A DNA stretch of 57,523 nt, from contig CAZQNT010000003.1 in assembly GCA_964595075.1 (NCBI GenBank), positions 7,666-65,188 on the forward strand. The letters run 5' to 3'. Within the stretch, counting starts at the first letter, position 1. Every line of letters starts with the position of its first letter. The notes beneath the pieces are model-generated. The model had not been told where the DNA came from and searched no databases. It worked only from the letters and a program-made list of their open reading frames with translations. A program made the translations under genes and the position numbers. Positions 5,207 to 57,223 of the stretch are shown in pieces. Source of the stretch: an uncultured Gammaproteobacteria bacterium. Its GTDB lineage: Bacteria > Patescibacteriota > Patescibacteriia > 2-12-FULL-60-25.

Positions 5207-5289
5207 GCATTATGAAATATGACTTATCTCGCTGCGGAACTCGCTTCGCTCAAACAGTCCTCGCTGCGATAAGTCATATTTCATAATGC
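5207..5289. repeat. Family D palindromic repeat, copy 1 of 2
   Basis: Perfect 22-bp terminal inverted repeats GCATTATGAAATATGACTTATC; inner direct CTCGCTGCG x2; second copy at 21446-21536. Confidence 0.85.
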
Positions 5290-5344
5290 GATGTCTGCAC
5301 GGTCCATTGCAAGAACCGATTTTTTCAGGCAGCATGTTCATCAC

Positions 5345-7303: not shown

Positions 7304-7347
7304 TGTGGATAACGTACCAGGTACGTACCTGGTACCTAGAATGCTCG
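7304..7347 (+). repeat. REP-like element copy 1 (TGTGGATAAC + GTACCAGGTACGTACCTGGTAC + CTAGAATGCTCG)
   Basis: 44 bp identical to 8377-8420; palindrome core 7314-7335. Confidence 0.9.
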
Positions 7348-7357
7348 GTATTTGGCA

Positions 7358-7386
7358 TTTACATAAATCATGCGCTTTCGTATAAT
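7358..7386 (+). promoter_or_regulatory. Near-consensus sigma70-type promoter TTTACA-17-TATAAT
   Basis: TTTACA 7358-7363, 17-nt spacer, TATAAT 7381-7386, 38 nt upstream of ATG 7425. Confidence 0.45.
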
Positions 7387-7424
7387 CTGTGTAGCACAAA
7401 GTTAATTATGATATTTCATAAATT

Positions 7425-8375
7425 ATGAATCCTTTTCTTGAAATACCAAAAGCAACTGTAGCTACTTCAGACAAAAAGAAGCCAGGGTTGATGATCGAAA
7501 AGATGACTGAGCTGATAACGATAGAGCGTGCTATTGAAATATTGGGACGTGAGAACGTCCATGGCATAGATGATATTCAGTATGCCCTAGGTAAAGACTT
7601 CGTTGATAAAAAGAAGGCACCTCCTTTTCCATATACAGAAAAAGACATGCAGTTTCTTAAAGAATTAAAGGAACAAGGAGTTAACGTAATGGTTATGTTA
7701 ACTGTCGCTGAGAAGGATGGAACACCGTTAAAAGCTACACGTGTTTACGATTTGATTTCGTCTCGATACCAGGAACTGGGTTTAGGTAAGTTGTTGAAAG
7801 ATGAAAGCGCTACGTTGCTCTCTGATACCCCATCACGCGATGTTCCCGAGCTGACATATGGATGGAGTGCGATAACTACCTCCTGTCTTCCTGAAACAAT
7901 GACTCCCGACAAACCCGGATCATATTTTCAACCCCATGCTTTTCAAAAAAAGGCTATCGAGGGCGTGGCATTTAAAAGTGGCTACTATGCCTTCGCAGGT
8001 CGCTCTAGGGGCGCACCCAGATATATGGGGGGGATTGCACGAGCATCGTTTACGGATATGCTTTACGGTGTAGGTATTGATCGTATCGCGTCGCATAGAC
8101 TCAACCCTGGCCACGAACGCGCGTTATTAAAGACGCAATTTCACTTAAGCGATGCAACTGAAGTATCATATGTAAGTCTAGGTTTAGGGAAAATGGATCC
8201 TGAATCCGGAGGATTTATTTGTAAGTCGCGAATTAACTCGCGAGGAGGAGAGGTAATCTGGATGGAAAAAGTAGGCGCGTGCGTTCGAATCAAGCCACTC
8301 TCATCAATTGGATTAAAAGAACCAAATCCACCGCCAGAACCCCACCAATTATTTGGCCATAAATTCTATACATGA
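7425..8375 (+). CDS. Hypothetical protein (316 aa) bracketed by identical REP copies
   Basis: Long ORF with its own promoter-like signal; no motif recognised. Confidence 0.6.
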   Translation: MNPFLEIPKATVATSDKKKPGLMIEKMTELITIERAIEILGRENVHGIDDIQYALGKDFVDKKKAPPFPYTEKDMQFLKELKEQGVNVMVMLTVAEKDGTPLKATRVYDLISSRYQELGLGKLLKDESATLLSDTPSRDVPELTYGWSAITTSCLPETMTPDKPGSYFQPHAFQKKAIEGVAFKSGYYAFAGRSRGAPRYMGGIARASFTDMLYGVGIDRIASHRLNPGHERALLKTQFHLSDATEVSYVSLGLGKMDPESGGFICKSRINSRGGEVIWMEKVGACVRIKPLSSIGLKEPNPPPEPHQLFGHKFYT

Positions 8376-8376
8376 T

Positions 8377-8420
8377 TGTGGATAACGTACCAGGTACGTA
8401 CCTGGTACCTAGAATGCTCG
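8377..8420 (+). repeat. REP-like element copy 2
   Basis: Identical to 7304-7347; its last 12 nt encode the C-terminus and stop of the RAYT gene on the other strand. Confidence 0.9.
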
Positions 8421-8960
8421 CGTTTTATCGAGAGTTTGTTGGTATTTTTGTCTGATAATGTCGGTAATTGCTTCAGGTGATATAAAGAGTGGATCGGGGT
8501 CGATCAACGAATTGATCGCTCCTTGCGCGTAGTATCTATTACTTGACCACTCCCAATCTTCCGGACGATTAACCAGTCCGGCGCGAACAGGGTTCATTTC
8601 TATATAATTTCCACACGATAGGAGTTGCGCGTCGTTTTCGATTACGATGCTCTTGAAGCGTCCTTGCCATACGTGGCCGACGAAATTGTATTTTTTGCAA
8701 TAATATCTGGCGTAATTCATCTGTATTGCATGCATTATTTTGGAAAGTTTGTCTCCGGTTGGGTTAAGCAATAGGTGAACGTGATTAGGCATTAAAGCAT
8801 AATGGTAAAGGCAAAATCCAAACAAACGCTTTGCTTGCAATAAAATATCGAGATACGTTTTGTAGTCATTCTCGCCATGAAAAATTAAAGATTTGTTATT
8901 CCCTCTGCTAATAACGTGATATGTCCCTTCCGGGTCTATCAATCGAGGAGGTCGTGGCAT
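8409..8960 (-). CDS. REP-associated tyrosine transposase (RAYT; IS200/IS605-like Y1 HUH enzyme)
   Basis: 183 aa; HUH motif PNHVHLLL, catalytic Tyr motif YIEMNPVRAGLV; flanked on both sides by the palindromes; no tnpB partner. Confidence 0.85.
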   Translation of the reverse strand: MPRPPRLIDPEGTYHVISRGNNKSLIFHGENDYKTYLDILLQAKRLFGFCLYHYALMPNHVHLLLNPTGDKLSKIMHAIQMNYARYYCKKYNFVGHVWQGRFKSIVIENDAQLLSCGNYIEMNPVRAGLVNRPEDWEWSSNRYYAQGAINSLIDPDPLFISPEAITDIIRQKYQQTLDKTRAF

Positions 8961-8973
8961 AATTTTTCCCTTC

Positions 8974-9023
8974 GGTACCAGGTACGTACCTGGTACTTCG
9001 GTACCAGGTACGTACCTGGTACC
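8974..9023. repeat. REP-like palindrome doublet (copies 3 and 4)
   Basis: GGTACCAGGTACGTACCTGGTAC ttc GGTACCAGGTACGTACCTGGTACC, 13 nt upstream of the RAYT start. Confidence 0.9.
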
Positions 9024-9078
9024 TGTAAGGGTACATATATAGGGCTCCCATTATTTTGAGGGGTTGTCAAGGAGTGGA

Positions 9079-9111
9079 TGTGGATAACGTACCAGGTACG
9101 TACCTGGTACC
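9079..9111 (+). repeat. REP-like element copy 5
   Basis: TGTGGATAAC + palindrome; preceded by a partial GTGGATG duplication. Confidence 0.9.
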
Positions 9112-9128: not shown

Positions 9129-10874
9129 ATGAAAAAGAGGTGGAGGGTTTTATTGCCTGAGACGAAACTTGATACGTCTGAGTTTCTGGCGTTGCATGGG
9201 GTGGCTGGGGTGCTTTTTGCTAATCGTGGGATAACGGGGGTGGAGGAGGCGAGGGCGTTTTTGAGACCGGATTGGGATAAGTGGATACACGATCCTTTTT
9301 TGTTTTCCGGAATGCGTGATGCCGTCGCACGGACTCTCACCGCTCTCGAATCCGGCGAACGCATCACCGTCCACGGCGACTACGATGCCGACGGCGTCAC
9401 CGGCTCCACGGTCGTAATCACGACGTTGAGGGAGATAGAGAAGCTTGTAGGGACGCGGTTGCCGCGCCCAGGGCGGGAGAACCCCGCCCCTACACAGATT
9501 GACTACTACATCCCACATCGCGACAAAGAGGGATATGGTTTAAGTCTCGAAACGGTTCAGCTTCTTAAAGATCGCGGAACGTCTCTTATCATCACCGTGG
9601 ATTGTGGCATCGCGAATGTCGCAGAGATCGCAGCTGCGCGCGCGGCTGGTATGGATGTGATTGTGCTTGACCACCATCGGTTCGGCGACGAATTGCCGAA
9701 CGCGATAAATATCCACCCCGGACTTCCGGGCGAAACTTATCCTTTTAAACACCTCGCTGCCGTCGGAGTGGCGTGGAAGTTTTGTTCGGCGTTGTTGACC
9801 GAGGCGCGGTCGCGCGGCCTAGCAATTCCAGACGGGTGGGAGAAGTGGCTGCTCGATCTCGTATCCATCGCCACGGTAACGGACATGGTTCCGCTCGTAG
9901 GAGAGAACCGCGTACTGCTGACATACGGTCTCAAAGTTTTGAACAAGACGCGGCGTACTGGATTGCGGAAGCTTATTGAAATATCAGGACGTAAGCTCGG
10001 AGAAATTAACGCGCGCGACATAGGATTCTCTCTAGGTCCCAGGATCAACGCCGCAGGACGAATGGACCACGCTGAGCTCGCACTTCGTCTTATGTTGTCG
10101 GAATCGGAAGAAGAAACAGCGGAATTGTCTGAAAAGCTGGAAGAACATAATCGCGAAAGGCAACGCGTAGTCGAAGATATGTTCATGGTCGCAGAATCGC
10201 GTCAGACGGGCGGCGCGATCTCCGTGTTGTGGGATTCGTCGTGGTCGCCGTCGCTTGTCGGACTTGTGGCCGGAAGATTTCTCGAGCGCACCGGTAAGCC
10301 GTGCGTCGCCATCGGGAAATACGGCGACGCGTGGATCGGCTCCGGGCGTTCGATCGCGTCTTATGATATTACGGAGGCGCTCCGTCGCGCAGGAGAAGGA
10401 TTGCTTACGCGAGTCGGAGGACATGTTCAAGCTTGCGGGTTTTCTTTCGCTGACGATTCATTCGCGTCTCTTTTGGCAGAAAGACTCCAAACGGATGCGG
10501 ACGAGCGGCTGTCATCCGAAAATCTTATGCCGGAACTTTTGATAGATGCGGAGCTTTCTTTATCCGAAATATCTTTTCAATTGGTAGATATGGTGAATAG
10601 TTTTCAACCGTTCGGAATAGGAAACGCGGAGCCAATGTTTTTAACGCGAGGTCTTTACGTTTTTGACGTATCGACTGTCGGCAACTGCGGGAAGCATCTC
10701 CGTCTGACTCTAAAAAGTCCGGAAGGATTTTTTCAGAAATTTATCGGTTTCGGTCTCGGCGATCGTCGCGCAGAGATTGAGAAAGGAGTTTTGCTCGATG
10801 TGGTGTATAATATCGGTGCGAACGAATGGAACGGACGCAAAGAAATCCAGTGCAAGCTGGTTGATTTTCAATGA
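9129..10874 (+). CDS. recJ: Single-stranded-DNA exonuclease RecJ
   Basis: DHH motifs (VHGDYDADGV, ITVDCG, VLDHH) and DHHA1 (GGHVQACG). Start at ATG 9129; upstream ORF part translates the REP. Confidence 0.9.
   Translation: MKKRWRVLLPETKLDTSEFLALHGVAGVLFANRGITGVEEARAFLRPDWDKWIHDPFLFSGMRDAVARTLTALESGERITVHGDYDADGVTGSTVVITTLREIEKLVGTRLPRPGRENPAPTQIDYYIPHRDKEGYGLSLETVQLLKDRGTSLIITVDCGIANVAEIAAARAAGMDVIVLDHHRFGDELPNAINIHPGLPGETYPFKHLAAVGVAWKFCSALLTEARSRGLAIPDGWEKWLLDLVSIATVTDMVPLVGENRVLLTYGLKVLNKTRRTGLRKLIEISGRKLGEINARDIGFSLGPRINAAGRMDHAELALRLMLSESEEETAELSEKLEEHNRERQRVVEDMFMVAESRQTGGAISVLWDSSWSPSLVGLVAGRFLERTGKPCVAIGKYGDAWIGSGRSIASYDITEALRRAGEGLLTRVGGHVQACGFSFADDSFASLLAERLQTDADERLSSENLMPELLIDAELSLSEISFQLVDMVNSFQPFGIGNAEPMFLTRGLYVFDVSTVGNCGKHLRLTLKSPEGFFQKFIGFGLGDRRAEIEKGVLLDVVYNIGANEWNGRKEIQCKLVDFQ
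9447..9493. repeat. GTAG/GC-hairpin element (family B) inside recJ
   Basis: GTAGGGACGCGGttgCCGCGCCCAGGGCGGGagaaCCCCGCCCCTAC; right part identical to the reverse complement of 57025-57056. Confidence 0.85.
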
Positions 10875-18720: not shown

Positions 18721-19347
18721 ATGGTAAAAATCACGAACGAAAAAAAGGCATCTCCGCTTCTCACCGATTATTACTCGACATCTTTTTTCTTGCTCATTTT
18801 GCTTTTTTTGGTCGCCTCGGCGTTCGCGCTATTGCCGCTCATGAATCAATTGAAGACGAAGAATTCCGAACTTGGCGCTGATATTGAACGCCTCACGCAA
18901 GAGCGGGCGTATTTGCAGAGTTTGGATCAATCGATCGTATCCGCGGAAAACATTTCGCCTACGGTATTAAGCCGTGTAGATCAGGCGTTGCCGAGAGAGT
19001 CGAATGTTCCGGAATTATTGACTTTGCTCGGAAGCGTCTCTGAAATGGACGGCGTGAAATTGAATTCCGTAAATTTTTCAGAAGTTAAGTCAGCGCAAGC
19101 CCGCGGAGCTGCGAGCGCGACATCCAGCATAATGCAAACGCAAATCAATATCTCCGTTAGCGCGGCAAATTATCCGCAAATAAAACGATTCCTTAGTCAT
19201 CTTGAATCGAGTCTTCGTCTTTTGGATGTGGTTGGAATAAACGTGTCGCTAGACGGAGAAAGGGCGACGTACGCGATACAGCTCGCCACCTACGCTTATA
19301 GACCGGCGGTTGTTCCGAGGGCGACTACAGAGAATAAGAAGCTATGA
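18721..19347 (+). CDS. PilO-like bitopic protein
   Basis: N-terminal TM followed by a coiled coil; position in the operon. Confidence 0.5.
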   Translation: MVKITNEKKASPLLTDYYSTSFFLLILLFLVASAFALLPLMNQLKTKNSELGADIERLTQERAYLQSLDQSIVSAENISPTVLSRVDQALPRESNVPELLTLLGSVSEMDGVKLNSVNFSEVKSAQARGAASATSSIMQTQINISVSAANYPQIKRFLSHLESSLRLLDVVGINVSLDGERATYAIQLATYAYRPAVVPRATTENKKL

Positions 19348-21445: not shown

Positions 21446-21536
21446 GATCATATTATGAAATTTTACTTATCTCGCTGCGGAACTCGCTGCGCTCGGGCAG
21501 TCCTCGCTGCGATAAGTAAAATTTCATAATATGATC
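21446..21536. repeat. Family D palindromic repeat, copy 2
   Basis: Starts 1 nt after the pilB stop; same inner CTCGCTGCG..TCCTCGCTGCG core as 5207-5289. Confidence 0.85.
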
Positions 21537-21551
21537 TCTGAAATAATTTAA

Positions 21552-21932: not shown

Positions 21933-21950
21933 ACATTGCAATATTATATC

Positions 21951-22032
21951 CGTGTCATTCCCGTGAAGACGGGAATCCAGATCAAAAGGATTATTTTTCA
22001 CTATCTGGATCCACGCCTACGCTGGGATGACG
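21951..22032. repeat. Family C structured repeat, copy 2
   Basis: CGTGTCATTCCCGTGAAGACGGGAATCCAG...CTGGATCC..GCTGGGATGACG. Confidence 0.85.
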
Positions 22033-25114: not shown

Positions 25115-25212
25115 GTGTCATTCCCGTGCAGACGGGAATCCATTTCCTCGAAATATCAGGAATAGGATTTTCACGGTCTGGATCCACCCGAAAGCTTTCG
25201 TGGGGATGACAC
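25115..25212. repeat. Family C structured repeat, copy 3
   Basis: GTGTCATTCCCGTGCAGACGGGAATCC...CTGGATCC...GGGGATGACAC, 98 bp. Confidence 0.85.
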
Positions 25213-25879: not shown

Positions 25880-26479
25880 ATGAAAAAGTTGCTGAACGGA
25901 CAAACTCTGATCGAACTGTTGATCGCAAGCGGTGTAATCGCAGGCGGATTGTTTGCCTCTGTTACTTTGATTTTTTCAAACCTACGGCTTTCCGACCGCG
26001 ATTCGGATTCCGTTGTCGCGATAAATCTTGCGCGGGAGGGAATAGAGCAAGCGAGGGAGCTTCGCGATTCCAATTGGCTCGCGGGAAATCCGTTTGATAG
26101 CGGAATGTTCGTCGCCGGCGGAGACTATTCAGCGACCCCCTCTTGGGATGGCAAAGCCGTTTCGGATCAAATATCTTTTGACTTTACAGCGGATGATTTT
26201 TCCGATCCTGCCGCGATAGTTAGATCGTCCACAGAGCCCGAAAATCAAGGATTTTTAACGCAAAATTCAGGAGTCGCGGCTGATCCGACTTTATGGAGGC
26301 GTCTCATCACGTTCCATCCCGTTTGCGATGCGCCCGGAGGATTTACATATAAAAACGATGGGGAAACTTGCGGAGGAGATTCGACCGTTGGCGTGAGAGT
26401 CGAATCGCGCGTGCGTTGGATGCGTAAAGGTAAGTCATTTGAACGAGTACTTTATGAAGATCTTTTCGATTGGCGGTAG
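25880..26479 (+). CDS. Minor pilin-like protein
   Basis: N-terminal NGQTLIELLIASGVIAGG hydrophobic helix. Confidence 0.6.
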   Translation: MKKLLNGQTLIELLIASGVIAGGLFASVTLIFSNLRLSDRDSDSVVAINLAREGIEQARELRDSNWLAGNPFDSGMFVAGGDYSATPSWDGKAVSDQISFDFTADDFSDPAAIVRSSTEPENQGFLTQNSGVAADPTLWRRLITFHPVCDAPGGFTYKNDGETCGGDSTVGVRVESRVRWMRKGKSFERVLYEDLFDWR

Positions 26480-27104
26480 GGGCGCGATTACCGCGCCAGG
26501 GCGGGAGAACCCCGCCTCTACGTTTGCTACGAAAAAACCCGGATTTTCCTTAATAGAGATGTTGGTAGTCGTCGCGATTTTTTCGGTTACGGTTTTGGTG
26601 TTGGCGCAGACGTTCGCTTCGTTCAATCAACTTCATCGCAGGATTTCAAACTCGACAGTTTTGAATCAGGACATGCGGTTTGTTACCGAGTCGCTCACGA
26701 GAGCTGTTCGACAATATCCGCTTACATTCGTAGGAGGGGGAATACCATCCAAGCAAAATGAGATTCAATTGAATCAGCCGGACGGCACGCTATACAGAGT
26801 AAAGCTTTCTGCTGAAGGGGATCCGGCTTGCGACGATCTGCCGTCCATCTCGTGTCTCTTGTTATCGAAAGACGGCGGAGCCACGTGGACGCCGATTACA
26901 GGCAAGCGTGTCAACGTGGAACGTTTCGACGTGTACGCGCGGCCTCCCGTATCGCCGTTTGAATCCGTCGGCGGAATTTATCCGAACGACGTACAGCCGT
27001 TCGTTACTTTTTCGATAAAATTAAGATACGTCGCCTCTAACTCGAAAGACGATACGACGCTAGAGACGCAGTCAACCGTATCGTCACGCACGTATCAACG
27101 CTGA
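26454..27104 (+). CDS. Minor pilin with an unusually long leader
   Basis: KKPG/FSLIEMLVVVAIFSV. The only in-frame starts are ATG 26454 or TTG 26439, upstream of the family B repeat. Confidence 0.65.
   Translation: MKIFSIGGRGAITAPGRENPASTFATKKPGFSLIEMLVVVAIFSVTVLVLAQTFASFNQLHRRISNSTVLNQDMRFVTESLTRAVRQYPLTFVGGGIPSKQNEIQLNQPDGTLYRVKLSAEGDPACDDLPSISCLLLSKDGGATWTPITGKRVNVERFDVYARPPVSPFESVGGIYPNDVQPFVTFSIKLRYVASNSKDDTTLETQSTVSSRTYQR
26476..26521. repeat. GTAG/GC-hairpin element (family B)
   Basis: GTAGGGGCGCGattaCCGCGCCAGGGCGGGagaaCCCCGCCTCTAC; its TAG is the stop of ORF 25880-26479. Confidence 0.85.
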
Positions 27105-27105
27105 T

Positions 27106-27924
27106 ATGAAATTATCACGTAACACGCGACACGCGACACGCAACGAGAGGAACTTGGCTGGAAACATCCTGCCGTTGGCTTTGATCGTGACGTTTACAAT
27201 CGTACTCGCGGGCGTCGGAATCGGGACGGTGGTTTTGGAGGGGTCGAGTCGAGCGCGTGAAATCGACGATAGCGTTGCCGCATATTATATGGCGGATTCA
27301 GGAATAGAGCGCGAGTTGTTTGAGTTGCGAAAGCGTGAAGCGACGCTTCAAGATGTTGCCGCGCTCTCCAGCCAATATCCAAACGCCGGAACTTGGAAAT
27401 CAACTGCTGCGATAGAGACGGCGGATCAAAAGACGTTTGAGACAATATCGCAGGGTGATTTTCACGTCGTGGATTTATTTGATCCGAACAATCTCGGCTC
27501 GGCTGGCGGCGTCGATCAATTGCAGATTGATTGGTCCGGAGCTGCGCAGCTTGAGATTGGTTACGCGCAATGGACGTCAGGAGCGATAGTGACATGGCCG
27601 AGCGAGGATTCGTATGTTTTTGAAACAGGAGCAGGTCCGTCATACACAATCGCAGGGCTAGACGCGACAAAGGCGTATAGATTTCGGATCAAAGCGATGA
27701 ACGGAGATGCCGCAAACGTCGTCGTGACCGCGTTTAACGGCGGATCGCCGGTTCCGTTTCCTGGCGACATCACGTTGTCCGCCGAGGGAACGTACGGAAA
27801 AGCGACTCAAAAAACCGCCGTTACTTTACCGAAGCTCGACGTTCTTTCCGAAATTTACGGTTTCGTGATTTTTTCGGAATGCCAGATATTGAAGGGGGTC
27901 GGAGGAGTCCCGATTTGTCCGTGA
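27106..27924 (+). CDS. PilX-like pilus-associated protein
   Basis: N-terminal TM (LPLALIVTFTIVLAGVGIGTVVLEG) and position at the end of the pseudopilin block. Confidence 0.5.
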   Translation: MKLSRNTRHATRNERNLAGNILPLALIVTFTIVLAGVGIGTVVLEGSSRAREIDDSVAAYYMADSGIERELFELRKREATLQDVAALSSQYPNAGTWKSTAAIETADQKTFETISQGDFHVVDLFDPNNLGSAGGVDQLQIDWSGAAQLEIGYAQWTSGAIVTWPSEDSYVFETGAGPSYTIAGLDATKAYRFRIKAMNGDAANVVVTAFNGGSPVPFPGDITLSAEGTYGKATQKTAVTLPKLDVLSEIYGFVIFSECQILKGVGGVPICP

Positions 27925-27925
27925 A

Positions 27926-27947
27926 GTACCAGGTACGTACCTGGTAC
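27926..27947. repeat. REP-like palindrome copy 6 (core only)
   Basis: GTACCAGGTACGTACCTGGTAC, 1 nt after the upstream stop. Confidence 0.9.
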
Positions 27948-28002: not shown

Positions 28003-28034
28003 TGTGGATAAGGTACCAGGTACGTACCTGGTAC
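28003..28034 (+). repeat. REP-like element copy 7
   Basis: TGTGGATAAG + palindrome. Confidence 0.9.
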
Positions 28035-28127
28035 GTGTGTATAAACAAAGAGCGCACCGTCGGGAGACATGAGCGCGGAGTTCCGTCTTGCGACGGCGCG
28101 TCTCTTTGTCTCACGCGGTGCGCGAGG

Positions 28128-34275: not shown

Positions 34276-34363
34276 GGGGGCGGGACAAGCCCGCCCCTAC
34301 CAATTCGGGCGAACACATCGGTCTCGCCCCTACGCTACTCACTACAAACTACTCACTACTAAC
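34276..34363. repeat. Cluster of two GTAG-type hairpins (reverse orientation) plus a TACTCACTAC doublet
   Basis: GGGCGGGacaagCCCGCCCCTAC (to 34300), GGGCGAacacatcggtcTCGCCCCTAC (34307-34333), CGCTACTCACTACAAACTACTCACTACTAAC (34333-34363). Confidence 0.8.
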
Positions 34364-35355: not shown

Positions 35356-35823
35356 ATGGCGAAAAAGCTATACGTAGGTGGTCTGCCTTACGCAACCACC
35401 GAGAACGCTCTTCGTGAGTACTTTTCCCAAGCGGGCAACGTCGAATCGGCGATGATTATCTCCGATAAGATGACCGGTCGCTCAAAGGGTTTCGGTTTCG
35501 TTGAAATGTCAACGGACGACGAAGCTCAAAAGGCGATCGAAATGTTCAATGGGAAAGACTTCGAAGGACGCTCGCTCGTAGTGAACGAAGCTCGCCCCAT
35601 GGAAGCTCGTCCTCCACGCTCCGGCGGTTTCGGCGGCAGCGGCGGCAGTCTCCCGCCCCTGCAGCAGCCGCAGCCACGGCGGATACGGCGGCCAAGGTGG
35701 CGGACGCTGGTAATCACGCGAACGAACAAAAACCCCTCACGGGGTTTTTTGTTATCCACAGGGAATGTTTTTGATATGGTGGTATACTCGTTTCAATTCA
35801 TGAAACATTTTATTTTGATATGA
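35356..35823 (+). CDS. RRM-type RNA-binding protein; C-terminus probably frameshifted
   Basis: RNP2 LYVGGL, RNP1 KGFGFVEM, Gly-rich tail. The ORF as written reads through an intrinsic terminator. Confidence 0.8.
   Translation: MAKKLYVGGLPYATTENALREYFSQAGNVESAMIISDKMTGRSKGFGFVEMSTDDEAQKAIEMFNGKDFEGRSLVVNEARPMEARPPRSGGFGGSGGSLPPLQQPQPRRIRRPRWRTLVITRTNKNPSRGFLLSTGNVFDMVVYSFQFMKHFILI
35728..35751 (+). terminator. Rho-independent terminator
   Basis: AAAAACCCC tcac GGGGTTTTTT. Confidence 0.7.
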
Positions 35824-38800
35824 ACACTATGACAAACGAAAGACGTTTTTGTTTTGATATGCGCACACTGTTTTTTGCAGCCGCGATAGCCGCATTGAGC
35901 ATCATTGGGATCGCTTCAACGACCAAGCATGCTGATGCGTACGTGTGCATATATCAGCAAACTGTAGGAGGGGCAATCGGGGATTTTAATAACGCGGCTA
36001 ACTGGACCGGCTGTAATTCAGCGGCTCCTCAGCCCGGTGACGATGTGGTTATAGTTTCCGGAACATCTACGCAGTTAAGCGCGAACGCGAAGTTTGCCGC
36101 GTTGAATACAAGTGGAACTGTTGATGCGTTGACGTTTGACTTGATGGCATCGTCTACTGTCACCGTTAACAACGGCGGCGTCGTAACTTCCACGAGCGGA
36201 AATTTGGGATTCGGAGGATCGCTCAATGTTGGGAATGCTGGGACGAGCGCACTGGGAACAATTTCAGGAACGATAAACGTTTCTTCTTCCGCGCAATTTC
36301 TTGGAGCTTCAACAAAGTTTGAACTCGGATCGAGCACGAGTACTTTTTATAGCGGATTCACCATAGGCCAGAGCGCGACTGTAAATGGGAATACAGGAAA
36401 ATTGGAATTCATAGGCAATCCTTCAATTAGTGCCGCTACTTGGAATATGGGGAGTGCAACTGTTTATTTCACAGGCGGCGAAGCGCAGACGTTGCTGTAT
36501 GCGGAAGTAAATAACACAGGATTTGGGAATGTAAAAGTTAATAAAACACCAGCCACAACATTGACCCTCTCAGGCAACGGGACTTCCACGGGTACGTTCA
36601 CGATTGAACGCGGTACCTTGTCACTTGGAACAAATACTCTAAACGTCGGTGTAAACTTCAATGTGAACGGAGGCGTATTAACTGCCGGAACAGGAACGCT
36701 GAATCTTAACGGTTCCGGAGCGCAGACGGTTAGTTCGACAGCGCTTTATAATTTGTCTATAGCCAAATCAGGCAACTCTGTAACGTTCTTAACTAACGTT
36801 ACTTCAACAAATAATTTCACCATCACAGGTGGCACGCTTGATCTTGGAACCGTCGCTTTCGACGTAGGGGGAGACTTCGTTGTAAACGGCGGCGTGTTTA
36901 CACCGGGGACTGCAACTACAACATTGCATGGAGCGAATTCGCAAAGCGTAAGTTCTACGAGTTTTGCTGCACTTACGATCGACAAGTCAGCAGGAACAGT
37001 TACGTTTACAGGCAATACGACATCAACCGGAGGGTTCAATCTGACGGGCGGAACGCTTTCTCTTGGAACGAACAGGTTCAACGTTGGCGGAGACTTCGCG
37101 GTAAAAGGCGGCGTGTTTACACCAGGGACCGCAACAACAACGTTAAACGGCGCGTCTGGGCAAAGCGTAAGTTCTACAAGCTTTTATGACTTGGTTATTG
37201 ATAAGTCAGGAGGTACTGCCACGCTGTCAACGAACGCCACGACAACCGGCAACTTCGCGTTATTGTCAGGGACCCTTTCTCTAGGAACAAAAGCATTTGA
37301 CGTTGGTGGAGGATTTACAGTAAACGGCGGCGTGTTTACACCGGGTACGGCTACTACGACCTTGAACGGCGCCGCGCCGCAAAGCGTAAGTTCTACGAGT
37401 TTTGCTGCACTTACGATCGACAAGTCAGCAGGAACAGTTACGTTTACAGGCAATACGACATCAACCGGAGGGTTCAATCTGACGGGCGGAACGCTTTCTC
37501 TTGGAACGAACAGGTTCAACGTTGGCGGAGACTTCGCGGTAAAAGGCGGCGTGTTTACACCAGGGACCGCAACAACAACGTTAAACGGCGCGTCTGGGCA
37601 AAGCGTAAGTTCTACAAGCTTTTATGACTTGGTTATTGATAAGTCAGGAGGTACTGCCACGCTGTCAACGAACGCCACGACAACCGGCAACTTCGCGTTA
37701 TTGTCAGGGACCCTTTCTCTAGGAACAAAAGCATTTGACGTTGGTGGAGGATTTACAGTAAACGGCGGCGTGTTTACACCGGGTACGGCTACCACGACCT
37801 TGAACGGCGCCGCGCCGCAAAGCGTAAGTTCTACGAGTTTTGCTGCGCTTACGATCGACAAGCCGGCTGGTATTGCAGTAACGTTTTCGGGCAACACGAC
37901 ATCAACCGGAGGGTTTAAGATCACCGGAGGTACGCTTTCTCTCGAAACCAAAGCATTCGACGTTGGTGGAGACTTCGTTGTCAACGGAGGCGTGTTTACA
38001 CCTGGAACTGCAACTACCACTTTGAACGGCGCATCTGCTCAAAGCGTTAGCTCAACAAGTTTCATGGGTTTGGTAATCGACAAATCAGCAGGCACAGTCA
38101 CGTTTACCGGCAATACGACATCAACCGCAGGATTAAGGATCACGGGCGGAACGCTTTCGCTCGGAACGAACAGGCTCAACGTTGGTGGAGACTTCGAGGT
38201 AAACGGCGGAACGTTTACTCCGGGGACCGGTCTCTTGGTACTCAACGGCGCATCCGCTCAAAGCGTTAGCTCGACGAGCTTTGAAGATCTGACGATCGAT
38301 AAGTCGGGAGGAACCGTGACGCCGGCTGTTAATACAACGTCAACAGGCAACCTGGTGTTATTGGGCGGCACGCTCGCGCTTGGAACAAAAGCATTGGATA
38401 TCGGAGGAGATTTCACGGTAAACGGAGGCGTGTTTACACCTGGAACTGCAACTACCACTTTGAACGGCGCATCCGCTCAAAGCGTTAGCTCGACAAGTTT
38501 CATGGGTTTGGTCATCGACAAATCAGCCGGCACGGTCACGTTTACCGGTAATACGACATCAACCGCAGGATTCAGGATCACGGGCGGAACGCTTTCGCTT
38601 GGAACGAACCGGCTCAACGTTGGTGGAGACTTCGAGGTAAACGGCGGAACGTTTACTCCCGGAACAGGTCTCTTGGTACTCAACGGCGCAGCCGCTCAAA
38701 GCGTTAGCTCGACGAGCTTTGAAGATCTGACGATCGATAAGTCGGGAGGAACCGTGACGCCGGCTGTTAATACAACGTCAACAGGCAACCTGGTGTTATT

Positions 38801-41252
38801 GGGCGGCACGCTCGCACTTGGAACAAAAGCATTGGATATCGGAGGAGATTTCACGGTAAACGGTGGCGTGTTTACACCCGGAACTGCAACTACAACTCTA
38901 AACGGATCCGGCGCGCAGAGCGTCAGCTCGACGGCTTTTACAGGTCTGGTGATTGATGGAGGCACCGTGACGTTTACCGGCAATACTACTTCGACGGCAG
39001 GGGTAAAAGTGACTTCCGGAACGTTTTCGCTTGGAAGCAACCGATTCAACATAGGCGGAGACTTCGTAGTCAACGGCGGAACGTTTACTCCCGGAACAGG
39101 TCTCTTGGTACTCAACGGCGCAGCCGCTCAAAGCGTTAGCTCGACGAGCTTTGAAGATCTGACGATCGATAAGTCGGGAGGAACCGTGACGCCGGCTGTT
39201 AATACAACGTCAACAGGCAACCTGGTGTTATTGGGCGGCACGCTCGCGCTTGGAACAAAAGCATTGGATATCGGAGGAGATTTCACGGTAAACGGCGGAG
39301 TATTCACGCCAAGCAACGCGACAACGACGCTCAACGGTTCAGGTGCGCAAAGCGTCAGTTCAACAAGTTTCGGTCCCCTGGCAATCGATAAATCCGCAGG
39401 AACCGTAACGTTCGCAGGAAACACAACGTCAACAGGAGGATTCAAACTCACAGGAGGAACCCTATCTCTTGGAACGAAGGCGTTCGCAGTAGGCGGAGAC
39501 TTTATAGTCAACGGCGGCGTGTTTACGCCAGGTACAGCGACAACCACACTGAACGGCGCGGGAGCGCAAAGTGTGAGTTCCACAGGATTCTATGACGTAG
39601 TCGTCAGTAAATCCGCAGGAACGGCTACGTTGTCGCACGTTAGTAGTACGATAGAAAACATAATGCTCTTAAGAAGCGGTACGCTAAATCTTGGCAATGG
39701 AACAACGACGTTTACTGGAGCGGGCACTCCGCTGCAGCTCCCTGGGGGAACATTCAATCCAGCCAATGGTACTGTTTCTTTCCGAGAAACTCAGACGGTG
39801 GCGAGCACGACATTCTACAATTTGAATGTCGATCCGGGTGCGGCAAAGACAGCGTCATTAAATGCCAGCACTACTGTTATCGGGAACGTTCATATAAATT
39901 CCAATGGAACTCTTGCAATGGGAGCCAACGACTTGACGGTGCTTGGAAATATCAGAAATACAGGATTGATCACCGTCACCACGGGTAATTTTATCCACAC
40001 CGCGGAATCAGTCCTTTTCACGGATTCAAGCGGAAATGAGTCGGCTTCATACACTAATTCGGCGACAGTATATGTAACCGTGCAGGATACTGATCAGAAT
40101 ATGGATGGAAATACAGCGGAAACGTTCACTATTCCTGTGAACTTTAACGCAGCCGCCGGAAGCGATTTCGATTCGCTAACATTGACAGAGACAGGCGCTT
40201 CCACTGGAATATTTAGATCTTCAGGAATAGCGATGACGGCAAATACTGTTGCATACCCCGGAAACAGTGCTTTTGAACTATTGGCGAGCGGTATCGGAAC
40301 GACGACGTATGTGGATCCCGGTTATGCGACCGACACGGCTTCGGATACAGTAACGCTTACCTATAGCGCTGCAGCGGCGAGTGCGGCAACGACCGGAAGC
40401 ACTGGCGGAGGCGGCGGCGGAGGATATACGTATACGACCCCCGTGGTAGTCGCCGTGACTACTCCTGCGGCAACTGTAAAGGTGAGTATTGATACGGTTT
40501 CACTGGCGAAGATTGCTACGATCGGACAGGCGGTACACAACCTTGTCAAATTGAAGGACGACGGTAACTCGACGACACAGGAAGACAGCGCAGTGTATTA
40601 CCTCGGCGGAGACGGACGACGCCACGCATTCCCGAACTCGAAGTCATTCTTTAGCTGGTACTGCGATTTTTCCGGAGTGAAGATTGTAAGCGCAGCTGAC
40701 CTTGCAAGTATCCCGCTTGGAAAGAACGTAACTTATCGAGCGGGTCACAACATGGTTAAGTTCCGAACCGATAACAAGGTTTACGCGGTCACGAAAGGCG
40801 GAGTTCTGCGCTGGGTAAAGACAGAGGCATTGGCGATCGCCTTGTACGGAAATACGTGGAACAAGATGATAGACGACGTGGAGGACACGTTCTATACGAA
40901 CTACGTATTCGGAACGGATATAAGCGCAACAACAGATTTCAGCGCAAGCACGGCTATTGTCTCGGTATCCCATCCTAGCGACTCGATGTCCATAACCGGT
41001 TATACTGAAAGCGAGGTTTCTTCTTCAGCGCCTGTTTGTTCCGTAAAAGATACCGATAATGACGGTTTATCAGACGCTGACGAGGCGGTGAACGGAACGA
41101 AAGTATCAGTTGCGGATACTGACGGAGATGGATTGAAAGATGGGGAAGAGGTCAATAAGTACGGCACGAATCCCCTAAAAAAGGATACTGATGGAGATGG
41201 ATACAGCGATGGGGTAGAGGTGAAGGCGGGGAAAGATCCGCTAAAAAAGTAG
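35820..41252 (+). CDS. Giant secreted repeat protein (1810 aa), putative adhesin/surface protein
   Basis: Signal peptide ending HADA/Y; ~14 units of 73 aa; poly-Gly linker; C-terminal DTDxDGxxDxxE (thrombospondin type 3-like) calcium-binding repeats. Confidence 0.85.
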   Translation: MNTMTNERRFCFDMRTLFFAAAIAALSIIGIASTTKHADAYVCIYQQTVGGAIGDFNNAANWTGCNSAAPQPGDDVVIVSGTSTQLSANAKFAALNTSGTVDALTFDLMASSTVTVNNGGVVTSTSGNLGFGGSLNVGNAGTSALGTISGTINVSSSAQFLGASTKFELGSSTSTFYSGFTIGQSATVNGNTGKLEFIGNPSISAATWNMGSATVYFTGGEAQTLLYAEVNNTGFGNVKVNKTPATTLTLSGNGTSTGTFTIERGTLSLGTNTLNVGVNFNVNGGVLTAGTGTLNLNGSGAQTVSSTALYNLSIAKSGNSVTFLTNVTSTNNFTITGGTLDLGTVAFDVGGDFVVNGGVFTPGTATTTLHGANSQSVSSTSFAALTIDKSAGTVTFTGNTTSTGGFNLTGGTLSLGTNRFNVGGDFAVKGGVFTPGTATTTLNGASGQSVSSTSFYDLVIDKSGGTATLSTNATTTGNFALLSGTLSLGTKAFDVGGGFTVNGGVFTPGTATTTLNGAAPQSVSSTSFAALTIDKSAGTVTFTGNTTSTGGFNLTGGTLSLGTNRFNVGGDFAVKGGVFTPGTATTTLNGASGQSVSSTSFYDLVIDKSGGTATLSTNATTTGNFALLSGTLSLGTKAFDVGGGFTVNGGVFTPGTATTTLNGAAPQSVSSTSFAALTIDKPAGIAVTFSGNTTSTGGFKITGGTLSLETKAFDVGGDFVVNGGVFTPGTATTTLNGASAQSVSSTSFMGLVIDKSAGTVTFTGNTTSTAGLRITGGTLSLGTNRLNVGGDFEVNGGTFTPGTGLLVLNGASAQSVSSTSFEDLTIDKSGGTVTPAVNTTSTGNLVLLGGTLALGTKALDIGGDFTVNGGVFTPGTATTTLNGASAQSVSSTSFMGLVIDKSAGTVTFTGNTTSTAGFRITGGTLSLGTNRLNVGGDFEVNGGTFTPGTGLLVLNGAAAQSVSSTSFEDLTIDKSGGTVTPAVNTTSTGNLVLLGGTLALGTKALDIGGDFTVNGGVFTPGTATTTLNGSGAQSVSSTAFTGLVIDGGTVTFTGNTTSTAGVKVTSGTFSLGSNRFNIGGDFVVNGGTFTPGTGLLVLNGAAAQSVSSTSFEDLTIDKSGGTVTPAVNTTSTGNLVLLGGTLALGTKALDIGGDFTVNGGVFTPSNATTTLNGSGAQSVSSTSFGPLAIDKSAGTVTFAGNTTSTGGFKLTGGTLSLGTKAFAVGGDFIVNGGVFTPGTATTTLNGAGAQSVSSTGFYDVVVSKSAGTATLSHVSSTIENIMLLRSGTLNLGNGTTTFTGAGTPLQLPGGTFNPANGTVSFRETQTVASTTFYNLNVDPGAAKTASLNASTTVIGNVHINSNGTLAMGANDLTVLGNIRNTGLITVTTGNFIHTAESVLFTDSSGNESASYTNSATVYVTVQDTDQNMDGNTAETFTIPVNFNAAAGSDFDSLTLTETGASTGIFRSSGIAMTANTVAYPGNSAFELLASGIGTTTYVDPGYATDTASDTVTLTYSAAAASAATTGSTGGGGGGGYTYTTPVVVAVTTPAATVKVSIDTVSLAKIATIGQAVHNLVKLKDDGNSTTQEDSAVYYLGGDGRRHAFPNSKSFFSWYCDFSGVKIVSAADLASIPLGKNVTYRAGHNMVKFRTDNKVYAVTKGGVLRWVKTEALAIALYGNTWNKMIDDVEDTFYTNYVFGTDISATTDFSASTAIVSVSHPSDSMSITGYTESEVSSSAPVCSVKDTDNDGLSDADEAVNGTKVSVADTDGDGLKDGEEVNKYGTNPLKKDTDGDGYSDGVEVKAGKDPLKK
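36610..39690 (+). repeat. Coding tandem array, 219-bp units organised as 438-bp double units
   Basis: 36942-37379 and 37380-37817 differ at one base. Further 438/432-bp near-identical copies start at 38259, 38697 and 39129. Confidence 0.9.
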
Positions 41253-41491: not shown

Positions 41492-41567
41492 TCGTGGGCG
41501 TCGCTCGGAGAGGATCGGTCATACAGCCGTGGATAGGGTACCGTGAGCGTACCTGGTACCTAGAAAC
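41492..41567 (+). repeat. Extended REP-like unit copy 8 (degenerate palindrome)
   Basis: TCGTGGGCGTCGCTCGGAGAGGA ... GTGGATAGGGTACCGTGAGCGTACCTGGTACCTAGAAAC. Confidence 0.75.
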
Positions 41568-41638
41568 ATAAATGGAAACTATGACAAAAAATTCCAAAGG
41601 TCTCGGTGTTTCAATTGATGATTTAATGAAATAAAAAT

Positions 41639-42492: not shown

Positions 42493-42560
42493 TCGTGGGC
42501 ACCGCTCGGAGAGGAATAACAAGAGCCCTGTGGGTAAGGTACCAGGTACGTACCTGGTAC
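42493..42560 (+). repeat. Extended REP-like unit copy 9
   Basis: TCGTGGGCACCGCTCGGAGAGGA ... TGTGGGTAAGGTACCAGGTACGTACCTGGTAC. Confidence 0.85.
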
Positions 42561-42580
42561 TGGAAAACTATTTATTTTGT

Positions 42581-44038: not shown

Positions 44039-44078
44039 TGTGGATAAGGTACCAGGTACGTACATGGTACCTCGAAAC
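44039..44078 (+). repeat. REP-like element copy 10
   Basis: TGTGGATAAGGTACCAGGTACGTACATGGTACCTCGAAAC (one core mismatch); 3' flank shared with copy 8. Confidence 0.85.
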
Positions 44079-57028: not shown

Positions 57029-57089
57029 GGGCGGGGTTCTCCCGCCCTGGGCGCGGAAACAGGGGAGGGCGGGAGAACCCCGCCCCTAC
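57025..57089. repeat. Inverted pair of family B GTAG/GC-hairpin elements
   Basis: GTAGGGGCGGGGTTCTCCCGCCCTGGGCGCGG aaaca GGGGAGGGCGGGAGAACCCCGCCCCTAC; its TAG is the PBP2 stop. Confidence 0.9.
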
Positions 57090-57223
57090 GCAGATATCTG
57101 GGTACAAAATATTGACAGAACTATTTTTATATGGTTTTTTAGTGCGGCTCCTTTTCTTATTAACGATGCGAACGAACAACTCATGGGCGACACGGTCGTC
57201 CAACAGACAACGGAGAGAGCGAA

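Follow-up and report, generated by a model that had tools for sequence, protein, structure and literature searches.

From published work on the TnpA_Y1 family of HUH nucleases, it is known that enzymes with the tyrosine motif Y---NP make up class 2, which is RAYT-like (RAYT, tyrosine transposase associated with repetitive extragenic palindromes, REPs), whereas IS200 carries Y---Q (PMC6006769). One branch of this class has been treated as the TIRYTs of TIRtrons (PMC3733652), as subclass 2.1 (PMC6006769) and as Group 1 (PMC5581495). Subclass 2.1 carries a C-terminal extension of ~50-100 aa with a helix-turn-helix (HTH)-like domain (Bac_DnaA_C, HTH_23 or HTH_28), and no REP-like sequences were found for it by Quentin et al. 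(PMC6006769), while Bertels et al. reported merely slightly raised counts of flanking 16-mers for Group 1 (PMC5581495). Di Nocera et al. described some families of terminal inverted repeats (TIRs) as self-complementary and moderately repeated (PMC3733652). In this study, a stretch of 57,523 nt from contig CAZQNT010000003.1 (the whole of which is called the window) was investigated for its Y1 HUH nuclease gene, located between lepA and recJ, and for the 22-nt palindrome GTACCAGGTACGTACCTGGTAC dispersed around that gene. We estimate at about 70% the probability that the two make up a domesticated, chromosomally fixed class-2 Y1 HUH endonuclease with its cognate palindromic repeats, that is, a REPtron/TIRtron-type system in a bacterium of the Candidate Phyla Radiation (CPR).

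An earlier note, made from the letters of the window alone, had recognized the open reading frame (ORF) 8409-8960 of the minus strand by the motifs PNHVHLLL and YIEMNPVRAGL, and both are indeed present in its 183-aa translation, with the HUH motif at H60-V-H62 and the catalytic Y119 in YIEMNP. The note's descriptions of the gene as single-copy in the window and as lacking tnpB also stand, as no other such gene was found there and no TnpB domain among the neighbours, and the profile check that it proposed came out clearly (Pfam Y1_Tnp, 52 bits against a cutoff of 23). The NCBIfam model REP_Tyr_transpos (NF047646) gave 78.1 bits, below its curated cutoff of 80, a near miss that fits a sister branch and not the canonical RAYT groups, and the NCBIfam IS200 model (NF033573) gave 18 bits versus a cutoff of 55. 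Against the PDB, Escherichia coli TnpA_REP (4ER8) was the only significant match of the single sequence and the best match of a 44-sequence profile (6e-12, versus 3e-4 for ISDra2 TnpA). An AF2 model with a pLDDT of 89.3 again retrieved 4ER8 as the best Foldseek match (E = 2.5e-9, TM 0.72), followed by ISDra2, IS200 and IS608, and an alignment of 44 homologues shows no variation at H60, H62, Y119, N123 or P124. On the class 2 criteria, YIEMNP is present and the window holds one gene copy; on the RAYT criteria of Bertels, this single copy keeps its lepA-recJ synteny in at least four genomes and its flanking 22-mer occurs eight times versus 0 expected. Judged from its sequence and modelled fold, the nuclease belongs with the class-2 (RAYT-type) Y1 HUH enzymes; an identity as IS200/IS605 TnpA was rejected on the IS200 score, the best match to 4ER8 and the Y---NP motif.

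To place the nuclease within the family, it was compared with the reference sequences of Di Nocera et al., rebuilt from their Additional file 5 (PMC3733652). The best BLASTP match was the TIRYT gbm_2474 (39% identity, E = 1e-47), and the other TIRYTs pfs_148A, dau_2153 and sml_1152 followed at E <= 1e-41, within a TIRYT identity range of 39-42%; the canonical RAYTs were more distant, with 28% and E = 1e-8 for E. coli b228 and E = 1e-11 to 1e-6 for those of Pseudomonas and Stenotrophomonas. A neighbour-joining tree, drawn without support values, put the nuclease inside the TIRYT clade, and its motif set NHVH / WQ / YIEMNP agrees with subclass 2.1 (PMC6006769, Table 1), which is Bertels Group 1. 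By sequence, the nuclease belongs to the TIRYT / Quentin subclass 2.1 / Bertels Group 1 branch. This places it, as the earlier note expected, apart from ordinary IS200/IS605 TnpA and among RAYT-type proteins in the broad sense, though outside the canonical RAYT groups; the REP/RAYT arrangement of Proteobacteria that the note had seen holds for the association of a class-2 protein with a palindrome, but not for the proteobacterial REP-associated group. At 183 aa, the nuclease is shorter than the references (216-238 aa) and is without their C-terminal ~40 residues, its last residue aligning to about residue 191 of the 224-aa gbm_2474. No Pfam domain was detected at the C-terminus of the nuclease or in relatives of 218-232 aa, even at E <= 10, and a DnaA-domain-IV-like C-terminus was likewise found in none of them at this threshold, so that such a link to DnaA was not used.

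The palindrome is perfect at 7314, 8387, 8975, 9001, 9089, 27926, 28013 and 42539, has one mismatch in the ninth copy at 44049 and is degenerate in the tenth at 41538, where the left arm GTACCGTGAGC has 4 mismatches and the right arm alone is intact. Copies preceded by the flank TGTGGATAA, the reverse complement of TTATCCACA, which we take to be the consensus DnaA box (TTATNCACA), are called boxed here. The count of ten copies had already been given correctly, although 28003, 41529, 42529 and 44039, listed with it, are starts of flanks and not of palindromes. None of 100 dinucleotide-preserving shuffles of the window contained a match, the chance expectation being 0. Each palindrome consists of two 11-nt units GTACCWGGTAC, every unit being a dyad too, and all ten copies are intergenic, lying between probable genes, with five grouped around the nuclease gene (Table 1). 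The palindrome 8387-8408 directly adjoins the nuclease stop codon (8409-8411); the final 12 nt of this boxed repeat are the gene's last codons and stop codon, and the shared right flank CTAGAA provides the stop codon and the last sense codon. In the homologous loci L032, L034 and L018, a palindrome occupies the equivalent place at the gene 3' end. The overlap with the 3' end was thus described correctly before, while the distance from the start codon to the doublet had been put at 13 nt instead of 14, and that to the next flank at 55 nt instead of 56. A weaker right flank, CTAGAA(AC), lies 3' of several palindrome copies, giving the order TGTGGATAAC-palindrome-CTAGAA on the boxed strand.

Folded as single-stranded DNA, the repeat is calculated to give a stem of 9 bp closed by an ACGT loop (-8.3 kcal/mol), and the doublet 8975-9022 a hairpin stem of 23 bp (-28.5 kcal/mol, z = -10), which would form 14 nt from the start codon beside the likely ribosome-binding site and may limit expression of the nuclease. 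The placement of the copies relative to gene starts and ends is inconsistent, and they are not followed by a T-tract. Outside the repeats, the window is somewhat depleted of GTAC and CCWGG; an explanation by restriction sites was considered and rejected, as it leaves the gene adjacency and the co-variation of the units unexplained. No match to the repeats was found in Rfam, nor to the 22-mer in the viral contigs of IMG/VR, and a literature search for the 22-mer motif turned up only an unrelated primer sequence. Perfect palindromes, which had been called unusual, are already known for some REPs (PMC8266576).

Table 1. Coordinates of the nuclease gene, its upstream block and the palindromic repeats in the window
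Feature	Position	Strand	Description
Y1 HUH nuclease gene	8409-8960	-	183 aa, TIRYT / TnpA_Y1 subclass 2.1-like, by Y1_Tnp, structure and BLASTP
Boxed repeat at nuclease gene 3' end	8377-8420	+	TGTGGATAA, C, 22-nt palindrome, CTAGAATGCTCG
Second boxed repeat	7304-7347	+	exact 44-nt duplicate of 8377-8420 (100% identity)
Tandem palindrome doublet, TTCG spacer	8975-9022	.	begins 14 nt upstream of the nuclease start codon
Upstream block	9036-9070	-	TTGACA 9070-9065, then 23 nt on TATATA 9041-9036
Boxed repeat between nuclease gene and recJ	9079-9110	+	orthologous boxed copy in a relative (L020/L048)
Unboxed palindrome	27926-27947	.	2 nt past the stop codon of ORF 27106-27924
Boxed copy with a second box-like 9-mer	28003-28044	+	second 9-mer TGTGTATAA, in like orientation
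Degenerate boxed copy	41528-41559	+	CGTGGATAGG and 4-mismatch palindrome; 49 nt downstream of tRNA-Ser
Copy with 1-mismatch box	42529-42560	+	box TGTGGGTAAG
Boxed copy, palindrome with 1 mismatch	44039-44070	+	between divergent genes

Comparison with homologous loci revealed the same type of arrangement around related genes of varying identity to the nuclease. GTACCWGGTAC arrays are present on both sides in L032 (78%), L034 (73%) and L018 (72%), one of them adjoining the stop codon. In L083 (60%) and L084 (52%), the repeat is GGTGCCWGGCACC, the GTACCWGGTAC unit with symmetric A>G and T>C changes, while L036/L037 (57%) harbor arrays of GGTACCWGGTACC, L038 (46%) has CAGATACCnnGGTATCTG on both sides, and the Planctomycete locus L001 (40%) has the identical 22-mer on both sides. 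True TIRs were observed in L035 (54%; the closed CPR genome CP129476), where they measure 33 nt and include GGTACCTGGTACC, and in L040 and L042 (46-50%), where they are GGGGAC-type TIRs of the TIRYT GGGGWSAS kind. At each of the about ten loci compared, which come from different phyla, such repeats stand beside the Y1 nuclease gene, and their units co-vary symmetrically; on this sequence comparison the repeat is tied to the nuclease gene. The arrays differ in length, with 2, 3 or 4 units.

A scan for the 20-nt core, with one genome per species, detected at least 11 exact copies in a related CPR metagenome-assembled genome (MAG) and 3 in another CPR MAG, and the core is also repeated in several Planctomycetes. 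Eight copies were disclosed in a high-GC actinobacterial Gaiellaceae MAG (L004, L006, L026, L031), in pairs 90-115 nt apart and with a flank of their own, CCGAGGTGGCG; a nuclease gene did not appear in the 8-kb stretches surrounding them. The family seems to comprise tens of copies, not hundreds, and, by sequence identity, one 22-nt palindrome is common to systems of at least three phyla. The palindrome is not specific to this lineage, the identical 22-mer being repeated in Planctomycetes, the Gaiellaceae actinobacterium and others.

The host was taken for a CPR bacterium already at first sight, and this is borne out by Patescibacteria MAG contigs (H41-bin265_1, GCA_964359245) that are 80-93% identical to the window in DNA and syntenic over ~27 kb, and by the closest named protein homologues, which are those of Patescibacteria; no paper joining RAYT or REPIN with Patescibacteria was found in the literature. 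The order lepA-nuclease-recJ is shared by the window, L032, L034, L018 and L077. Between lepA-recJ genomes, pN was low (0.12-0.19) and pS saturated (0.75-0.83), which indicates that purifying selection acts on the nuclease gene and that it has long occupied this site. All of the lepA-recJ genomes compared have a perfect 22-mer, and because it remains so where synonymous sites are saturated, constraint or continuing homogenization is needed to explain it. All three comparable repeat sites (9089, 27926 and 28013) are occupied in a relative ~82% identical in DNA, so that repeat turnover is slow; the ortholog of the 27926 copy (L064 2936) is degenerate.

The conserved flank pointed out in the earlier note is real, though its resemblance to the DnaA-box consensus had been missed. 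Exact TGTGGATAAS stands 5' of five window copies and the degenerate forms CGTGGATAGG and TGTGGGTAAG stand 5' of two more, and the claim that all seven flanked copies share one orientation is correct, each lying on the plus strand. The window contains seven perfect TTATCCACA sites, and five of them flank a repeat. The DnaA-box consensus is given by Quentin et al. as TT[AT]TNCACA (PMC6006769). When 66 distinct palindrome copies from the genome and metagenome scans were pooled (41 from CPR-like loci and 25 from other lineages), TTATNCACA occurred exactly 1 nt from the stem in 14 of the 41 CPR-type copies and with one mismatch in another 4 (~40% together), as against 1 of the 25 others; the probability that a random flank matches the box is ~1.5e-5. 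The boxed copies differ from one another mostly at position 3 and at the degenerate N of the consensus, which is C in 15, A in 3 and T in 1, and one copy, in L024, has inverted boxes on both sides.

In five genomes whose proteins are 52-78% identical to one another (the window, L032, L034, L083 and L084), the nuclease gene is also preceded by a conserved TTGAC(A/T) with a box, in either orientation, at a distance of 4-8 nt, or 27 nt in L083; in the window this is the repeat 9079-9110, which, read on the nuclease strand, puts its DnaA box 8 nt from TTGACA. The TTGACA/TATATA block may, by its sequence, be the promoter of the nuclease gene. No paper tying DnaA boxes to REPs or RAYTs was found in the literature, the sole mention being a negative remark of Quentin et al. 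on TIRs. A further observation comes from L084, another CPR genome, in which 18757-18820 contains two perfect DnaA boxes, and after each of them comes a palindrome of another kind, TCGACGTCGGACGTCG; CPR genomes may more generally pair a DnaA box with a palindrome. The box cluster was also considered as an oriC and this was rejected, because the GC skew is positive throughout and the window accordingly holds no replication origin.

Under the preferred reading of a fixed nuclease with cognate repeats, the palindrome would fold, as single-stranded DNA, into the hairpin with 9-bp stem and ACGT loop, chiefly on the lagging-strand template; the nuclease would bind this hairpin, cut nearby via an H60/H62-bound metal and Y119, and could rejoin the strands, and such cutting and rejoining would copy or move repeats and favour rearrangements beside them. 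Hairpin binding and nearby cutting through Y119 would be expected from TnpA_REP and from IS608/ISDra2 (PMC8266576, PMC3479197). TnpA_REP is strand-specific and tells the strands apart by GTAG, bulge or loop (PMC8266576). Because stem and loop are fully symmetric here and both strands give the same hairpin, polarity would have to come from the flank alone. In the window, the tag stands 5' of the hairpin on the G-rich strand, which corresponds to the lagging-strand template, a geometry that matches that of the GTAG tag and the IS608 guide sequences. As for its role, the box is most likely a former DnaA operator turned repeat tag: it would have begun upstream of the nuclease gene, been co-mobilized with the adjoining palindrome and now serve as the asymmetric tag of the repeat.

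Several observations weigh against this reading. The branch to which the protein belongs, subclass 2.1 / Group 1, has been reported as not REP-associated (PMC6006769, PMC5581495). A Planctomycete protein of 40% identity is accompanied by the identical 22-mer while relatives of 46-50% have GGGGAC-type TIRs, and in these sequences the repeat type does not simply follow protein identity. Over half of the palindrome copies are without a box, the spacer between TTGACA and TATATA is 23 nt and the block was not called by a sigma-70 consensus promoter scan. The family seems small, and its three comparable copies stand at orthologous sites, with no sign of recent mobility. It is also important that the orientation of the flank in the window is confounded with gene direction. 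The GC skew, which is positive over the whole window and gives the plus strand a leading-strand composition, is consistent with the flank in 7 of 7 window copies, but in the other contigs about 5 were concordant, 2 discordant and 1 mixed, an agreement that is suggestive but only partial.

Some genes of the window are bracketed by the repeats. The exact 44-nt direct repeats 7304-7347 and 8377-8420 enclose the orphan ORF 7425-8375 of the plus strand (316 aa), for which no homologue was found among 5.8 billion proteins and no match in Pfam, NCBIfam or PHROG; its GC content of 0.435 is below that of its neighbours, and a strong promoter-like site lies at 7358-7386. In L032, a different pair of small ORFs fills the slot between lepA and the nuclease 3' repeat, which is empty in L034. 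Likewise, a direct repeat of ~80 nt (41492-41571 / 42493-42572), made of 23 nt and the boxed palindrome, brackets a metallophosphoesterase gene with a GC content of 0.349, just downstream of the tRNA-Ser. In a relative, the repeat orthologous to 28013 has a RelE/ParE-like toxin-antitoxin pair next to it. Taken together, this suggests that genes are gained and lost preferentially at the repeats, whatever the catalyst. It was observed separately that the region of 40-46 kb has a lower GC content overall and may be an acquired islet.

An extension of the preferred reading would have the repeats be DnaA-box-tagged REPs of a single-strand nuclease system wired to the replication initiator, possibly acting also as attC-like sites of gene gain and loss; we regard this as tentative, a possibility that falls well short of even odds. 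DnaA, whose binding to the boxed repeats would be predicted from the box sequence, would then bind beside the upstream TTGACA and so time the synthesis of the nuclease to replication, would on dispersed boxed copies give the hairpin its polarity or aid its extrusion, and would be titrated by the scattered boxes in a ~1-Mb genome. An unlikely alternative is that the palindromes are host regulatory or structural sites, such as operators of dimeric transcription factors, DnaA-associated sites or terminators, with no functional link to the nuclease and an adjacency that is accidental or regulatory. The dyad symmetry of the 11-nt unit is typical of operators, a DnaA box accompanies many copies and the TTGACA block, copies are kept at orthologous sites, and the DnaA boxes of L084 are also paired with an unrelated palindrome; yet such sites would not be expected to lie beside a Y1 nuclease in all ~10 loci across phyla with symmetric co-variation, which is the defining REPtron/TIRtron pattern, and the copies show neither a consistent position relative to gene starts or ends nor a T-tract. 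That the system is a decaying relic, its nuclease no longer processing the repeats and slippage, gene conversion or recombination maintaining or expanding them, would agree with the low copy number, the age of the orthologous copies and arrays of 2, 3 or 4 units, which fit slippage. We consider this quite improbable in view of the invariance of the catalytic residues in 44 homologues, the strong purifying selection on the gene and a 22-mer kept perfect despite saturated neutral sites, which needs selection or homogenization.

Far less credit can be given to the two readings in which the repeats delimit a moving segment. An ordinary autonomous IS200/IS605-type insertion sequence, whose gene and own hairpin ends move as a unit, would share the Y1_Tnp fold, and the boxed hairpins on both sides of the gene do stand in direct orientation, like the left and right ends (LE/RE) of IS608. 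It is nevertheless very improbable, given the IS200 model score of 18 bits versus 55, Y---NP in the place of Y---Q (PMC6006769), a gene that is single-copy in the window and without tnpB, the same lepA-recJ site in genomes with saturated synonymous sites, and repeats that stand alone at many sites. Capture of cassettes, with the nuclease inserting and deleting single genes at repeats that act as attC-like single-strand recombination sites, would fit the orphan ORF between exact 44-nt duplicates, the low-GC phosphoesterase gene between ~80-nt duplicates that include the repeat, the differing cargo of the lepA-to-3'-repeat slot in three genomes, and the toxin-antitoxin pair by the repeat at the relative's 28013-orthologous site. 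However, the cases are few, homologous recombination between repeats or ordinary intergenic indels would give the same picture, and neither circular intermediates nor repeated cargo were seen, so we hold this scarcely probable.

Other elements were also noticed in the window. A second, unrelated repeat family (9448-9493, 26476-26521, 34277-34306 and 57066-57095) has the look of canonical REPs, with 5'-GTAG, two GC-rich hairpins and CTAC-3' ("double foot", about -18 kcal/mol); two of its copies lie in frame in coding sequence, in the recJ ORF (9448-9493) and in ORF 26439-27104 (26476-26521), the recJ copy is present in the H41 relative and absent from the recJ of L032, and no RAYT for this GTAG...CTAC family was found in the window. 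An 88-nt element at 28040-28127 is 100% identical to a relative (L064 4195-4282) between flanking genes of ~82% identity; it forms a long hairpin (-31 kcal/mol, z = -6.7), has no Rfam match, and may represent a small RNA that has escaped annotation or some other element under strong constraint. An 89-nt element resembling miniature inverted-repeat transposable elements occurs at 5209-5297 and 21452-21540, with long terminal inverted repeats ATTATGAAATATGACTTATC..., 88% identity between copies and -21.5 kcal/mol. A third small repeat family of 2-3 copies (2114-2213, 21936-22032 and 25115-25142) consists of the hairpin GTGTCATTCCCGTGAAGACGGGAATCCA and adjoining conserved blocks. Finally, about 13 tandem units of 219 nt (73 aa) occupy 36609-39619 in ORF 35820-41252 (1810 aa), which is presumably a repetitive surface protein.

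The findings extend REPtron/TIRtron-type systems to the Candidate Phyla Radiation, whose genomes are regarded as streamlined and repeat-poor, and give a TnpA_Y1 branch reported as REP-free a member with dispersed cognate palindromes. The predicted DnaA box, joined to the repeat and found again upstream of the gene, offers a concrete, testable link between a single-strand DNA nuclease and the replication machinery. How Y1 enzymes choose a strand could be asked cleanly with this hairpin, which is fully symmetric and whose asymmetric tag can be separated from it.

Compared with other DnaA-box elements outside oriC, namely the DnaA-regulated promoters and the datA/DARS-type clusters of E. coli, the boxes of this study are alike in their perfect TTATCCACA 9-mer, in the variation at the N position of TTATNCACA and in one copy adjoining a promoter-like block. 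They differ in that the predicted box lies inside a mobile-element-like repeat, fixed 1 nt from a hairpin, in a window whose GC skew carries no origin signal. IS200/IS605 TnpA (IS608, ISDra2) resembles the nuclease in its Y1 HUH fold, in having directly oriented hairpin ends and in a presumed single-strand mechanism on the lagging-strand template, whereas the nuclease fails the IS200 model, has Y---NP and not Y---Q, stands as a single copy at a fixed locus without tnpB, and has ends that are dispersed alone.

E. coli TnpA_REP (4ER8; Groups 2/3) agrees with the nuclease in fold and catalytic motifs and is its best match among solved structures, and canonical REPtrons likewise consist of a single-copy, vertically kept gene flanked by dispersed intergenic palindromes, with a conserved tag at the hairpin foot, here on the 5' side of the G-rich strand. 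The nuclease is, however, only ~28% identical to E. coli TnpA_REP and scores 78.1 bits where the equivalog cutoff is 80. Canonical REPs (Groups 2/3; subclasses 2.2, 2.4, 2.5 and 2.7) have GT[AG]G at the 5' foot of the hairpin, whereas the repeats here have no GT[AG]G tag, bulge or asymmetric loop, and the hairpin foot is preceded by TGTGGATAAS with no GTAG/GTGG directly at the stem. Canonical REPs exceed 100 copies per genome; 10 copies were counted in the 57.5 kb of the window and at least 11 exact ones in the related MAG. REPIN-type inverted pairs with a spacer are absent here, except for tandem doublets of the self-complementary unit.

The closest resemblance is to the TIRYT/TIRtron systems (PMC3733652; subclass 2.1, PMC6006769; Group 1, PMC5581495), which provide the best sequence match, the clade in the tree and the motifs NHVH, WQ and YIE(L/M)NP, and in which the repeats also flank the gene, one overlapping its 3' end, and some TIR families are self-complementary and moderately repeated (sml 1152). 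In contrast to these, the enzyme of this study ends at 183 aa, some 40 residues short of the C-termini of the references, and its ends are perfect palindromes of an 11-nt dyad unit instead of GGGGWSAS TIRs. The TIRs of TIRtrons are inverted, whereas the palindromes here are trivially so and the asymmetric box is direct on both sides; a DnaA box is carried by the repeats; and TIRYT genes, reported as enriched in large genomes, are represented here in a CPR host with a small one. A REPtron/TIRtron-type system is itself of a known kind; the features not described before are its occurrence in a CPR bacterium, the combination of a short subclass-2.1-type enzyme and dispersed cognate palindromes, the presence of one palindrome in several phyla, and a predicted DnaA-box tag that also stands by the upstream block of the gene.

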